From a virus (taxonomy: Duplodnaviria; Heunggongvirae; Uroviricota; Caudoviricetes), in IMG/VR virus record IMGVR_UViG_2585427777_000009, positions 1 through 5,591 of that record: DNA of 5,591 bases; one strand, 5' to 3'. A model generated the notes under the pieces. That model worked only from the letters and a program-made list of their open reading frames with translations. It did no database searches and had not been told where the DNA came from. Positions 1 to 5,591 of this stretch are shown here, piece by piece (positions within the stretch are counted from its first letter, which is position 1; each line of letters opens with the position of its first letter). A program made the translations under genes and the position numbers.

Positions 1-17
1 ACCTTGGTTTAAGAGAA
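1..17. other. Left crossover site in inverted orientation, truncated by the window start (central TT at positions 4-5)
   Basis: Positions 1-17 (ACCTTGGTTTAAGAGAA) are the exact reverse complement of 5114-5130. The outer 9 bp of the site would lie left of the window. Confidence 0.65.
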
Positions 18-148
18 CTCGGTACCAGCGGTGAAAAGATCCCCCTGTTGAGTACGGCTAACACATGGAGTGCGCGCCAGACTTTCAACGGCGGGATCAC
101 CGGGGCGCTGACAGGGAACGCCGACACCGCGACGAAATTAAAAACAGC
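1..148. repeat. Left arm of the segment-flanking inverted repeat (pairs with 4983-5130)
   Basis: Hand-aligned reverse complement of 4983-5130 matches 1-148 with 3 mismatches (positions 53, 107, 140), all third-codon-position synonymous changes. Similarity drops to protein level only beyond 148. Confidence 0.9.
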
Positions 149-2237
149 CATAAACATTAATGGCGTCAGGTTCGATGGTTCGGCTGACATTACGTTGACT
201 CCTAAAGATCTGGACGTTTACAGCAAAAGCGAAATAGACAATAAAAAAGGGATGAGAAAATACACTTTTTCAGCGCCTGCAAATGCAGTAAGCGGTAAGT
301 GGTATCCTATAGTCTTTCGCCGATCTAGAGGCAGTACCGATGAATTAGCCTCACGAGTTGTGATAACTACTTATTCCTCAGCTGGCGGATACGCCATGAA
401 TAATTGTGAATTTAATGGTTTTGTTATGCCTGGCGGTTGGTCTGATCGCGGTTCATATGCGGCTGGTTTTTTCTCAATATATTCTACTGCTGAGCGAGCT
501 ATACACTCGATTATTTCAAGTGTGAAAGATGACGATTTGTGTAGTGTGTTTTACGTTGAAGCCAGAGCATTTCCTATCAAGATATTTGCTGAGGAGGGCT
601 TGAACGTAATTGTTCCAACTACTGACTATACCGTTGGTCAAGCCACCTATAAGTGGGGGGCCACAGATCCAGTAGCAGAAAGTACAAATACTCAAACCAT
701 TCTGGATTTTAAAAATGGACGTGGTTATTACTGCTCACATCAGTTTGTTTCAAGCCTTTCAGGAAATGCAGCAACAGCAACGAAATTAGCAAGTTCAATA
801 AACATAGGTGGTGTATCCTTTGATGGTTCAGCCGATATAGATTTGCCTGGTGTTAATGCGACTGGTAATCAGAACACCACGGGGAATGCGGCGTCTGCCA
901 CGAAATTACAAACGGCAAGAACCATTGGTGGCGTTTCATTTGATGGCTCCGCCAATATCAACCTGCCGGGCGTGAATATTGCTGGTAGCCAGAACACGAC
1001 TGGTAATGCTGCAACCGCAACGAAACTTCAGACGGCCCGCACAATAGGCGGCGTGTCATTCGATGGTAGTGCCAATATCGACCTGCCAGGTGTGAATAAA
1101 ACAGGTAATCAGAGCACAACCGGTAATGCTGCAACTGCAACAAAACTGCAAACAGCACGCACAATAGGCGGCGTGTCATTCGATGGCTCCGCCAATATCA
1201 ACCTGCCGGGTGTAAACATTGCTGGTAACCAGAACACAACCGGTAATGCAGCGACAGCGACCAAGTTACAAACCGCTAGAACTATAAATGGGGTGTCGTT
1301 TGACGGTTCTAAAAACATTGAGCTAACTCCAAGGTCTATAGGCACGATCAACTCAGCAACAATGTCTTTTAGTGGTGGTGCCGGATGGTTCAAGCTGGCA
1401 ACTGTAACCATGCCACAAGCCAGTTCCGTGGTTTACATAAGCCTGATTGGTGGCGCAGGGTTTAACGTTGGCTCCCCGCAGCAAGCAGGCATCTCTGAGC
1501 TGGTTCTGCGTGCAGGAAATGGGAACCCCAAAGGTATTACTGGTGCATTATGGCGACGGACCTCGGTTGGATTTACTAATTTTGCATGGGTGAATACATC
1601 CGGTGATACCTATGACATTTATGTAGAAATAGGTAATTACGCCACAGGTGTTAATATCCAGTGGGATTATACCAGTAACGCCAGCGTAACGATTCATACA
1701 TCACCAACTTATACAGCGAATAAACCAACAGGCCTGACAGATGGAACTGTATATGTAATTTACAGTTCGCACATTAAACCGACTGCTGCTGATGTTGGGG
1801 CGTTATCATTATCTGGAGGTCAATTGAATGGTGCACTGGGCATCGGTACATCCAGTGCTCTTGGCGGTAACTCGATTGTTTTGGGTGATAATGACACGGG
1901 CTTTAAACAAAATGGCGACGGTAATCTGGATGTTTATGCTAATAACGTCCATGTTATGCGCTTTGTCTCCGGTAGCATTCAAAGTAATAAAACCATAAAT
2001 ATTACGGGGCGTGTTAATCCCTCGGATTACGGTAACTTTGATTCCCGCTATGTGAGAGATGTCAGACTTGGCACACGTGTTGTCCAGACCATGCAGAAAG
2101 GGGTGATGTATGAGAAAGCAGGGCATGTAATTACAGGGCTTGGTATTGTCGGTGAAGTCGATGGTGATGACCCCGCAGTATTCAGACCAATACAAAAATA
2201 CATCAATGGCACATGGTATAACGTCGCACAGGTGTAG
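1..2237 (+). CDS. Tail fiber protein, alternative variable C-terminal cassette (Sv'-like), silent in this orientation; 5' end is the crossover site and it has no start of its own
   Basis: Frame is open from position 3 ([22 protein letters not shown]...), identical to the minus-strand fiber across the inverted repeat. The TTG at 48 used by the ORF track is not a real start. Contains repeated [32 protein letters not shown] fiber-shaft motifs and a C-terminal [26 protein letters not shown]...NGTWYNVAQV module shared with the other fiber. Stop TAG at 2235-2237, followed 3 nt later by a tfa gene. Confidence 0.85.
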   Translation, partial: LGLRELGTSGEKIPLLSTANTWSARQTFNGGITGALTGNADTATKLKTAININGVRFDGSADITLTPKDLDVYSKSEIDNKKGMRKYTFSAPANAVSGKWYPIVFRRSRGSTDELASRVVITTYSSAGGYAMNNCEFNGFVMPGGWSDRGSYAAGFFSIYSTAERAIHSIISSVKDDDLCSVFYVEARAFPIKIFAEEGLNVIVPTTDYTVGQATYKWGATDPVAESTNTQTILDFKNGRGYYCSHQFVSSLSGNAATATKLASSINIGGVSFDGSADIDLPGVNATGNQNTTGNAASATKLQTARTIGGVSFDGSANINLPGVNIAGSQNTTGNAATATKLQTARTIGGVSFDGSANIDLPGVNKTGNQSTTGNAATATKLQTARTIGGVSFDGSANINLPGVNIAGNQNTTGNAATATKLQTARTINGVSFDGSKNIELTPRSIGTINSATMSFSGGAGWFKLATVTMPQASSVVYISLIGGAGFNVGSPQQAGISELVLRAGNGNPKGITGALWRRTSVGFTNFAWVNTSGDTYDIYVEIGNYATGVNIQWDYTSNASVTIHTSPTYTANKPTGLTDGTVYVIYSSHIKPTAADVGALSLSGGQLNGALGIGTSSALGGNSIVLGDNDTGFKQNGDGNLDVYANNVHVMRFVSGSIQSNKTINITGRVNPSDYGNFDSRYVRDVRLGTRVVQTMQKGVMYEKAGHVITGLGIVGEVDGDDPAVFRPIQKYINGTWYNVAQV
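762..1331 (+). repeat. Tandem 120-bp in-frame coding repeats (40-aa phage fiber-shaft repeat), about 4.75 copies
   Basis: Units at 762-881, 882-1001, 1002-1121, 1122-1241 and a partial unit 1242-1331. Each encodes [40 protein letters not shown]. Exact nucleotide runs of about 30 bp recur between units (e.g. cgcacaataggcggcgtgtcattcgatgg at about 1037 and 1157). Confidence 0.9.
2040..2237 (+). repeat. Internal diverged inverted repeat: conserved fiber C-terminal module (pairs with 3332-3529)
   Basis: The last ~65 codons of the two fibers are about 85% identical at nucleotide level by eye and about 90% at protein level (DSRYVRD(V/I)[18 protein letters not shown]...NGTWYNV(A/S)QV). Confidence 0.8.
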
Positions 2238-2240
2238 TTT

Positions 2241-2768
2241 ATGCAGCATTTAAAAAATATTACTGCGGGTAATCCAAAAACTGTTGCCCAGTATCAACTG
2301 ACAAAAAATTTTGATGTTATCTGGTTATGGTCCGAAGAGGGAAAAAACTGGTATGAGGAAGTAAGTAATTTTCAGGAAGACACGATAAAGATTGTTTACG
2401 ATGAAAATAATATTATTGTCGCCATCACCAGAGATGCTTCAACGCTTAACCCTGAAGGTTTTAGCGTTGTCGAGGTTCCTGATATTACTGCCAACCGACG
2501 TGCTGATGACTCAGGTAAATGGATGTTTAAGGATGGTGCCGTGATTAAGCGGATTTATACGGCAGACGAACAGCAGCAACTGGCAGAATCACAAAAGGCA
2601 ACTTTGCTTTCCGAAGCCGAATCCGTGATTTTGCCGCTGGAGCGCGCTGTCAGGCTGAATATGGCAACAGATGAGGAACGCAGCCGACTGGAAGCATGGG
2701 AACGCTACAGCGTTCTTGTAAGCCGCGTGGATACGGCAAAGCCAGAATGGCCACAAAAACCTGAGTAA
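2241..2768 (+). CDS. Tail fiber assembly chaperone (Tfa; Mu U / lambda Tfa family), partner of the plus-strand fiber cassette
   Basis: 175-aa ORF starting at ATG 2241, 3 nt after the fiber stop. N-terminus [41 protein letters not shown] with internal [18 protein letters not shown] and C-terminal PEWPQKPE are recalled from memory as typical of enterobacterial phage Tfa proteins. N-terminal ~105 aa are ~75% identical to the minus-strand paralog. Stop TAA at 2766-2768 is followed by a hairpin terminator. Confidence 0.85.
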
Positions 2769-2772
2769 AAAT

Positions 2773-2796
2773 AAGGCCCGATAACGGGCCTTTTCT
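2773..2796. terminator. Bidirectional rho-independent terminator between the convergent tfa genes
   Basis: 8-bp stem (aaggcccg 2773-2780, complementary to cgggcctt 2785-2792) with loop ataa. It is flanked by T-runs on both strands (ttttct on plus; tattttt on minus, from 2764-2772). It lies between the plus tfa stop (2766-2768) and the minus tfa stop (2796-2798). Confidence 0.6.
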
Positions 2797-3329
2797 CATT
2801 CTGGTTGTTCGGGAAACGTTACTGGCAGGCTGGAGGTGTCTGTAGATTCGACTTTCTGCGCATAGAGCATCCACTCGGTTAATTTTTGTTTATTCTCGTC
2901 GGAAATGATGCCCAGCCGTAGCTGTGAGTCCCATAGCTGGGTTTTATCCCTGACAAGTTGCAACAGGCTTTGCTTTTCATTCTCTGCCTGCTGCCTCTGT
3001 TCCTCCTCGGTATAAGTTCGCTTTATCACTACGCCATCTTTGAACATCCATTTCCCCGAAATATCAGCCCGGCGATTTGCTGTAATATCAGGCAACTCAA
3101 CGACACTTAAACCTTCTGGATTAATTGCCGATACATCTTTATCCATAGCAACAATTATTCCATCTACAGTGTAAGCCAGTTTTATTGTATCTTCCTGAAA
3201 GTTTTTCACTTCCTCATACCAGTTTTTTCCATCTTCGGACCATAACCAGATAACATTAAAATTCTTTGTTAGCTGATATTGTTCAACGGTTTTTGGATTA
3301 CCTGCGACAATGTTTTTTAAATGCTGCAT
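2796..3329 (-). CDS. Tail fiber assembly chaperone (Tfa; Mu U / lambda Tfa family), partner of the minus-strand (expressed) fiber
   Basis: 177-aa ORF. Its ATG (complement of 3327-3329) lies 2 nt after the fiber stop (3332-3334). N-terminal half is a paralog of the plus-strand Tfa ([41 protein letters not shown]); the C-terminal ~70 aa are divergent. Ends in ...PEQPE, with the stop at 2796-2798 abutting the central hairpin. Confidence 0.85.
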
Positions 3330-3331
3330 GA

Positions 3332-3529
3332 TTATACCTGCGATACGTTATACCATGTTCCGTTAATTAACTTTTGTATTGGTCTGAATACTGCCGGATC
3401 ATCGCCATCAACTTCACCGACAATGCCAAGCCCCGTAATTGCATGACCTGATTTCTCATACATCACGCCTTTTTGCATAGTCTGAACAACACGTGTGCCC
3501 AGGCGAATATCTCGTACATAGCGAGAATC
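3332..3529 (-). repeat. Internal diverged inverted repeat: conserved fiber C-terminal module (pairs with 2040-2237)
   Basis: See the partner feature at 2040-2237. Confidence 0.8.
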
Positions 3530-5591
3530 CGATTCAGCTTTGGTATATGCACCAACATCCCCCGCAGAGGGTTTGCGGGTTGTGGTGTAAAACTCTGACC
3601 AGTTAGCTTCAAAGCCATAACCATCACGCGCTGAACGATAAAAGATACCGCCGTTCTTATAATTCACGCGGAACTGTACAGCAGGGCAACTCCCCGCATT
3701 CATATTGAAGTGGAGGATTAATGTCGATGCACCACTGATATCTGCATCATAAACACCGCTATTCCAGTTCCAGCCAACAGCTTTATCATTTGCAACCCTG
3801 CTTCCTGTTTGCCCTAAAGCGAATGCAGGCTGCTGGTTTTTCGTGTTGTAGTCTCGTCGCCAGCCAGGAGCATAAGCATCACCATGATTAATATAAGTGA
3901 ATTGAGCGTTAGTGATGCCGCCTCCGGTGGAAGTGCTTGGTGTTGTTACACGGATGGTCATGGCACCTTTATTGCCCATAACTTCAATAACGCAACCCGC
4001 AAGGTGAATAAGTCCACATCCGGTGTCAGTAATAATTTTATTATTGCCGTATGACCATGAGCATTTACACATCCAGTATGGATGATTGAAGGCCCACTGA
4101 GATTCCAGCCATTCAATAAATTGCGCCGTCGTCCAGTTTCCTGCACCTGTGCTAATAGAGCCATGAAAAGAGCGGCAAGCACCTATTGTTTGCGTAAATT
4201 TATCTTTGTTTGGAATATCTGCGCCGTTCTGGTTTTTCTGTAATGCTCCTGCGGCTAATTCTACAGTTTGCTCAAGATTTAAATCTGCCGCCGTTAGCTC
4301 AATATTTTTAGAACCATCAAACGACACCCCATTTATAGTTCGAGCGGTTTGTAACTTGGTCGCTGTCGCTGCATTACCTGTTGTATTCTGATTGCCAGTG
4401 GCATTAACACCAGGTAAATTAATATTCGCAGTACCATCAAAGCTAACTCCGCCGATAGTTCTTGCCGTCTGTAGTTTTGTAGCGGTCGCTGCATTGCCAG
4501 TTGTATTCTGATTGCCAGTGGCATTCACACCAGGAATGGAGTCCCTTGATGTATAGACCTGCGCCCAATCTGACCATGCAGCATCTGTTGTATCCCTACG
4601 GGAACGAATGAATGCCGGTGCATGTGCGCCACTTGTACCACTCCACCCAATAAGCAACTCTCCCTCACCAGCAGCACTCGCCCCTTTCATATGCAGAACA
4701 TTGCCGAATGATGTTGGGTAACTATTGCTATATGCTTCATACATTTGAATACCAGCAGTACCCTGAGTAGAGCCACTTAACGCCGTTACGGGCCCGCGTG
4801 ATACCAATGTATTAATGTTGATATCGCCTGAGCCATCAAACTTAACACCATTGATGTTTCTCGCCGTCGCAAGTTTTGTCGCGGTAGCAGCATTCCCCGT
4901 GGTGTTCTGGTTACCAGTTGTATTTACACCTGGAAGATTGATATTGGCCGAGCCATCAAATGCCACACCGCCAATAGTGCGTGCTGTTTTCAATTTCGTC
5001 GCGGTGTCGGCGTTCCCTGTCAGTGCCCCGGTGATCCCGCCGTTGAAAGTCTGGCGCGCACTCCATGTGTTAGCCGTGCTCAACAGGGGGATCTTTTCAC
5101 CGCTGGTACCGAGTTCTCTTAAACCAAGGTATTGGATAACGGCCAGTGTGCTTGTTTTAGCCAGAATATCGCGACCGACTGACGTTAAATCAGTCTGCGC
5201 TACCGTATCCTTACCAGTGAAATAAGGCAGTTTGTTTGCACCAGTCGCAAGGGCAGCGAGCGCGGTTAAAGTTGCATCCAGAGGCTGTTTGCCTGCCAGC
5301 GCATTTGTCATTGTTGTCGCAAAGTTCGGGTCATTGCCCAGTGCTGCTGCAAGCTCATTCAGGGTATCAAGAGCTTCAGGTGATGAGCCGACCAATGCAG
5401 AGATAGCAGCTCTTACATAAGCGGTCGTAGCAATCTGCGTGTTATTCGTACCCTGTGCAGCGGTAGGCGCAGTAGGTATTCCCGTTAATGCAGGACTTGC
5501 TAAAGGCGCTTTAAGGGCCAGAGCATTGTTGATAGTTGTGCTGAAATTCGGGTCGTTATTGATCGCAGCCGCTATTTCTTTCAGCGTATCC
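3332..5591 (-). CDS. Tail fiber protein in the expressed orientation: conserved N-terminal region (continues beyond the right window edge) fused in frame to a variable C-terminal cassette; 5' partial
   Basis: The minus-strand frame stays open upstream of the TTG at 5395 chosen by the ORF track, to the window end (my translation of 5396-5461: ...[22 protein letters not shown] then [25 protein letters not shown]), which is a typical phage tail-fiber N-proximal motif. It crosses the crossover site at 5114-5139 in frame. It contains two blocks of fiber-shaft repeats and a Cys/Trp-rich distal domain, and ends ...[65 protein letters not shown]. Confidence 0.9.
4292..4537 (-). repeat. Two tandem 120-bp fiber-shaft repeats in the minus-strand fiber (aa ~287-368)
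   Basis: Direct repeats are visible on the plus strand (gcattacctgttgtattctgattgccagtggcattaacaccagg at about 4370 and gcattgccagttgtattctgattgccagtggcattcacaccagg at about 4490). Translation gives [21 protein letters not shown](G/N)GVSFDG twice. Confidence 0.8.
4808..5017 (-). repeat. First block of fiber-shaft repeats in the minus-strand fiber (about 1.75 units), partly inside the flanking inverted repeat
   Basis: Encodes [40 protein letters not shown] followed by [30 protein letters not shown]. The counterpart motif in the plus-strand module is at about 114-203. Confidence 0.75.
4983..5130. repeat. Right arm of the segment-flanking inverted repeat (pairs with 1-148)
   Basis: See left arm. 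The repeat extends outward into the crossover site (to 5139), whose left-hand counterpart is outside the window. Confidence 0.9.
5114..5139. other. 26-bp DNA-invertase crossover site (hix/gix/cix family), right copy: TTCTCTTAAACC-AA-GGTATTGGATAA
   Basis: Imperfect palindrome of two 12-bp half-sites around a central AA dinucleotide (5126-5127). It closely resembles hixL (TTCTTGAAAACCAAGGTTTTTGATAA) and gixL (TTCCTGTAAACCGAGGTTTTGGATAA) as I recall them. It sits exactly at the outer boundary of the inverted repeat and inside the fiber reading frame. Confidence 0.75.

Follow-up and report, generated by a model that had tools for sequence, protein, structure and literature searches.

A P1-type cixR crossover site within a tail-fibre reading frame and the probable invertible C segment that it borders

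Phase variation of phage tail fibres by inversion of a DNA segment is known from several systems with related crossover sites. The closest described one is the C segment of phage P1 with its Cin invertase and cix sites (Iida 1982/1984; Hiestand-Nauer & Iida 1983; both as cited in bioRxiv 10.1101/2022.07.24.501295, which summarises the P1 inversion mechanism as well). The annotation of the P1 genome (NC_005856) marks the invertible segment, cin and the enhancer and places the crossover between the two central bases of cixR and of cixL, and the sites of the Din family have been tabulated together (PMC3241671, Table 3). For the Hin system of Salmonella, PMC3798978 describes an invertasome composed of invertase dimers at two sites and a Fis-bound enhancer on supercoiled DNA, in which the active-site serines cut all four strands at the crossover point, a subunit pair rotates by 180 degrees and religation follows. 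Hin sites equally have 26 bp and an AA core, and the same paper describes a serine invertase mechanism dependent on Fis and the enhancer; Hin, however, flips a promoter for flagellin genes and not a coding cassette, and its sites are not located within a reading frame in the same way. The Min (mix sites) system of p15B and the Pin (pix sites) system of e14 use AA-core sites of the Din family and switch fibre C-termini, whereby Min operates with six sites.

Position of the window among described invertible segments

The DNA analysed here, a stretch of 5,591 nt referred to as the window (positions 1 to 5,591 of the Caudoviricetes record IMGVR_UViG_2585427777_000009), is in all probability the invertible C segment of a P1/P7-like phage or phage-plasmid. 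Its layout is that of an invertible tail-fibre segment of the P1 C or Mu G type, with two opposed cassettes and a crossover site at the boundary between constant and variable fibre parts, and the arrangement of two fibre cassettes around two convergent genes with Caudo_TAP domains agrees with that of the C segments annotated in P1, P7 and D6. Among phage records, megablast equally retrieved the C segments of P7, RCS47, P1 and D6, besides the G segments of Mu and D108. The order of elements is the one of P1, namely cin, cixL, silent cassette, two assembly genes, expressed cassette, cixR and constant part. The same sites and the same layout are present in P7, RCS47, D6 and the plasmids pS51_2 and pCFS3292-3, with cixL and cixR of D6 having been annotated by homology.

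It is the cargo that sets the window apart from P1, to which megablast aligns just 49% of the window, with 84% identity. The constant fibre part is 91-97% identical to the S constant part of P1 and D6 and 99.5% identical to that of a viral contig introduced below as L005 (BLAST), while the 3' portion of the expressed cassette, which aligns with the S' variable part of P1, and both assembly genes show about 83% DNA identity to the corresponding P1 region. Compared to the P1 reference record, an S'-like cassette occupies the expressed position, and the cassette at 3-2237 has little in common with P1 beyond its ends. In the phage, plasmid and complete Escherichia coli collections, no record closely matches the whole window; the best one, pS51_2, covers 85% of it at 89% identity, with 96% over window 1-946. 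As no single record exceeds 85% of the window, the cargo represents a mosaic of fibre modules. Parts of the segment have their nearest counterparts in fibre genes of Yersinia phage records; over the central stretch 1337-4224, Yersinia phage vB_YpM_5 reaches 90.6% identity compared to about 83% for P1.

The G segment of Mu (Gin, gixL/gixR) shares a 12-2-12 site of the same family inside the S fibre gene (21/26 positions) and homologous assembly genes and fibre C-termini (about 84% DNA identity over window 2271-4246), but possesses the core dinucleotide GA where the window has AA. Mu inverted repeats have only about 34 bp and the invertase is a different one.

Two cix sites at the ends of a long inverted repeat

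The right crossover site is located at 5114-5139, where the 26-mer TTCTCTTAAACCAAGGTATTGGATAA is composed of an inner half (5114-5125), the core AA (5126-5127) and an outer half (5128-5139), TTCTCTTAAACC-AA-GGTATTGGATAA. The initial annotation had recognized here a 12-2-12 imperfect palindrome of the hix/gix/cix family with a central AA, and the assignment could be made more precise, as the site is P1 cixR in 26/26 positions, letter for letter TTCTCTTAAACC AA GGTATTGGATAA in Table 3 of PMC3241671 and, as reverse complement, the annotated cixR region of the P1 genome NC_005856 (TTATCCAATACCTTGGTTTAAGAGAA; 26/26). The half-sites TTCTCTTAAACC and TTATCCAATACC (right half, reverse complement) agree at 8 of 12 positions around the central AA, and the palindrome is therefore real. 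Alignment to the hix, gix, cix and pix sites, which had been proposed as a check, separates cixR with its complete identity from the other sites with 17 to 22 identical positions (cixL 22/26, hixL 21/26, gix 21/26, pixL 20/26, pixR 19/26 and hixR 17/26). On all features that a sequence can display, the site is a member of the Din family.

From 13 published sites of the Din family, with cixR itself among them, a half-site weight matrix was constructed, which assigned 30.0 bits to 5114-5139 compared to a maximum of 17.9 bits over 200 shuffles. The runner-up 26-mer in the window scored 3.6 bits, below the shuffle median of 6.3, and only three half-sites exceeded 12 bits, namely the inner one (5114-5125), its inverted counterpart (6-17) and the outer one (5128-5139). 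The search with the matrix across the window for internal crossover sites, as in a Min-like shufflon, found none, so that a simple two-site switch with just two flanking sites and not a Min-type shufflon is indicated; with a runner-up full site of just 3.6 bits, a multi-site shufflon of the p15B Min type was ruled out.

The partner site is cut by the left end of the window. Window 1-17 (ACCTTGGTTTAAGAGAA) comprises the inner 17 bp of cixL, with 3 nt of the outer half, the core TT at 4-5 and the inner half at 6-17, and is indeed the exact inverted copy that the initial annotation had seen, the reverse complement of 5114-5130. A search with 3 mismatches allowed found 2 copies of this stretch compared to 0.02 expected by chance; together with the matrix score against the shuffles, this excludes a chance palindrome. 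The outer 9 bp of the left site fall just left of the window. They could be supplied by a proxy, the contig IMGVR_UViG_2585427777_000014 (L006), which was found by an exact-pattern scan of viral contigs and is 100% identical to window 1-719. L006 carries CAATCCTAA directly ahead of window position 1 (in a longer reading ...TTTCAATCCTAA), and the leftward extension by 9 bp suggested earlier thereby completes, in favour of the initial annotation, a 26-bp site, CAATCCTAAACCTTGGTTTAAGAGAA, with the halves CAATCCTAAACC-TT-GGTTTAAGAGAA, which is the reverse complement of P1 cixL in 26/26 positions. Flank and site are the same in the closest plasmids, pS51_2 and pCFS3292-3. The outer halves of the two full sites differ at 4 of 12 positions (cixL GGTTTAGGATTG, cixR GGTATTGGATAA). 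With high confidence, we consequently consider 5114-5139 as the cixR of a P1/P7-like C segment and window 1-17 as part of its partner cixL.

The invertase gene is equally found in L006, where cin, a gene of 186 codons, adjoins window position 1. Its product is identical to P1 Cin in 184 of 186 amino acids and contains the domains Resolvase (PF00239) and HTH_7 (PF02796). The stop codon TAA (L006 13093-13095) resides inside the left site, as in P1, where cixR likewise lies inside the S reading frame. The annotated 72-nt inversion enhancer of P1 is conserved in L006 with 70 of 72 nt, outside the window, and a serine recombinase gene is located beside the site also in pS51_2, pCFS3292-3, D6 and P1. 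Within the 5,591-nt window, neither an invertase gene nor an enhancer was found. Because left flank, cin and enhancer are all situated outside the window, we infer them from L006, a proxy identical over the first 719 nt only. Window position 1 (L006 13096) is the first base past the cin stop codon, and the window boundary seems to have been set by gene call rather than by the biology of the site.

The pattern scans probed window 231-280, 4560-4619 and 56 nt from about 1650-1705. With window 231-280, the exact scan of viral contigs retrieved 4 loci, two of which agree with the left window part at 100% identity, over stretches that end at the equivalents of window 719 and 1586; genome contigs gave no match with this pattern and metagenome contigs one relative of 94% identity (L010). 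In viral contigs, window 4560-4619 had no exact match, and the 56-nt pattern retrieved just a partial relative (L009) and neither L005 nor L006.

The 17-nt copy is the mere tip of a 184-nt inverted repeat with the arms 1-184 and 4947-5130, of which the left arm codes for the N-terminal stretch shared by the variable fibre parts. The arms are 90% complementary. They match perfectly over the first 52 nt and begin to diverge at arm positions 53, 107 and 140, with perfect-identity runs of 52, 53 and 32 nt. The identity of the junction peptide is owed as much to this long inverted repeat as to the crossover site.

Fibre cassettes and reading frames across the junction

The plus strand carries from 3 to 2237 a fibre cassette of 744 codons and a stop, open from position 3, which represents a variable C-terminal part. 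It has neither its own N-terminus nor its own promoter, and its expression would require an inversion that fuses it to the constant part. Such a fusion has been seen in L005, in pCFS3292-3 (L004), in L008 and in L010. A Pfam search with the 744-aa product retrieved no family at E <= 0.001. The silent cassette is paired with a tail-fibre assembly gene of the U/U' type at 2241-2768 (plus strand; Pfam Caudo_TAP, E = 6.6e-35), which converges on the assembly gene at 2796-3329 (minus strand; Caudo_TAP, E = 4.8e-34) paired with the expressed cassette. Between the two genes, a G+C-rich hairpin (2773-2792) with an 8-bp stem, AAGGCCCG-ATAA-CGGGCCTT, is followed by a T-run on the plus strand and a weaker T-run on the minus strand; these flanking T-runs suggest that the hairpin is probably a bidirectional terminator shared by both genes at the centre of the segment. 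The variable C-terminal part in the currently expressed orientation extends on the minus strand over 3332-5125, as delineated by its open reading frame and BLAST to P1, with a marginal match to gp37_C (23.3 bits compared to a cut-off of 22.5), and passes at the site into the constant N-terminal part Sc, of which the window contains the 3' end (5128-5591, minus strand), cut by the right window edge.

Read on the minus strand, the site is translated as GTT ATC CAA TAC CTT GGT TTA AGA GAA, V-I-Q-Y-L-G-L-R-E. The frame TAC CTT GGT places the central dinucleotide at positions 2-3 of the Leu codon; the initial annotation, which had located the central AA in the codons for Leu and Gly, was right with respect to Leu, whereas the Gly codon is only abutted. 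Both the frame 3-2237 (plus) and the frame 5590-3332 (minus) are open across the site with the same 16-residue stretch, and the two are identical for 49 residues past the junction Tyr. As the two cassettes possess the same start in the same frame, fusion of the constant part to either of them would be in frame and produce the same junction peptide, a prediction of the initial annotation with which the open frames and the fusion in L005 agree.

Beyond their starts, the two halves of the segment resemble each other at the ends that meet in the segment centre, where internal inverted repeats are found at 2040-2236 / 3333-3529 and 2241-2587 / 2983-3329. Between the fibre cassettes, approximately the final 65 codons agree at 84%, and between the assembly genes approximately the initial 115 codons at 77%; with such similar ends, it is mainly in the middle that the two cassettes diverge. 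In the silent cassette, a 120-nt unit is repeated in tandem at 765-1286 (4.3 copies, 75-77% matches) and codes for a 40-aa fibre repeat. Related copies on the opposite strand, at about 4291-4534 and 4817-5021, give rise to many secondary inverted repeats (pairs I2, I3, I6-I11).

Natural junctions, alternative readings and a proposed mechanism

Opposite junction states are observed in natural sequences. In the contig IMGVR_UViG_2585427777_000008 (L005), the reverse complement of window 5131-5591, which comprises the constant part and the outer half of cixR, continues directly into window 1-1586, with 0 mismatches over 461 + 1586 = 2047 nt. Contigs of the same assembly hence show the start of cassette 3-2237 joined to cin in L006 and to the constant part in L005, while the window itself has the minus-strand cassette attached to the constant part. 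The stretches L005 7088-9134 and L006 12535-13814 of IMG genome 2585427777 present the same cassette start at 100% identity with different partners. The explanation is either a sequenced culture with both orientations or a genome in which the element occurs twice.

These junctions bear on the reading that the sites are intact and the switch is inactive here, for example by truncation or loss of cin, with the window frozen in one orientation. That cin is located outside the window would accommodate such a state, as would the P1-like plasmids reported in PMC6906374, in which cin or the C segment is truncated or rearranged. Both sites, however, are perfect copies of functional P1 sites, L006 holds a full-length cin 99% identical to P1 Cin along with the enhancer sequence, and the opposite junction occurs with 100% identity within the same assembly as L006, so that we consider an inactive switch improbable.

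The position of the exchange can be narrowed down by the differences between the repeat arms. Comparing the window with L005, all three diagnostic arm differences (53, 107 and 140) move with the cassette, which leaves for the exchange only the 55 bp between site position 10 and arm position 52, with the core included. The plasmids pS51_2 (L003) and pCFS3292-3 (L004) are 99.8-99.9% identical with the segment inverted, and the four positions that separate the outer half-sites remain with the flanks; their arms are too similar for finer mapping, and this pair confines the exchange to 1-181 only. At arm position 65 (about L003 128 and 4533), the arms of pS51_2 differ, while those of pCFS3292-3 share one base. 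Simple site-specific inversion would have this polymorphism move together with the segment, which it does not; an ordinary SNP, gene conversion or crossing-over within the repeat may be behind it. Both junction states fit site-specific inversion as judged from the joined sequences, and identical junctions would arise from homologous exchange in the outermost part of the repeat.

That the two arms of the 184-nt repeat recombine through RecA and thereby cause the inversions, with the 26-bp site as a passive passenger, might be argued from the perfect runs of 52, 53 and 32 nt, from natural junctions mapped no finer than 55 bp and from the position-65 polymorphism of the plasmid pair, which fits a crossover inside the repeat. 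Yet the identical site in P1 has Cin binding and the crossover point annotated from experiments, the arm differences at 53, 107 and 140 move with the segment and thereby place the exchange in the outermost interval, the one that contains the site, and the outer half-sites always remain with the flanks. Arms of 184 nt would also be short for efficient RecA exchange, and we assign this reading a very low probability. A homologous-recombination repeat devoid of a site was rejected on the basis of the site identity to P1, the arm differences and the flank-bound outer half-sites.

For the preferred reading, a Cin-dependent C segment, a mechanism can be proposed by analogy with the knowledge on Cin, Gin and Hin. 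Serine invertases make a 2-nt staggered cut at the central dinucleotide. Applied to this segment, a Cin dimer would bind to each of the 26-bp sites. On supercoiled DNA, the two sites would synapse with the enhancer that Fis occupies in the 5' part of cin. At the central AA/TT, all four strands would be cut with a 2-nt stagger, and half of the tetramer would rotate by 180 degrees before the ends are religated. As a result, the segment of about 5.1 kb would flip and the constant fibre part would be joined to one of the two variable C-terminal parts; it is the location of cixR inside the fibre gene, together with the same cassette starts in frame, that would permit the fusion of the constant part to either variable part. 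Each cassette would bring its matching assembly gene, with the swap placing both downstream of the constant part and the late promoter, and the switch would change the host range of the phage. In the window as given, the minus-strand cassette 5125-3332 would be the expressed one.

Judged by sequence, site, partner, invertase and architecture are those described for phage P1 in the early 1980s and as such already known; the only new content is the mosaic combination of fibre modules, which is usual for fibre genes. It is conceivable, though we put it forward tentatively, that the two cassettes form an undescribed pair of receptor-binding specificities, as no record of the phage, plasmid and complete E. 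coli collections exceeds 85% of the window and the silent cassette is without a Pfam match, and that the assembly with both junctions shows the switch mid-flip in a natural isolate. For annotation, marking the window as an invertible segment implies that assemblies of the element may differ or break here. The fibre ORF 3-2237, which seems to lack its N-terminal part, is likewise a silent cassette and not a pseudogene. Equally, this particular pair of fibre tips may merit recording for host-range work on P1-like phage-plasmids.
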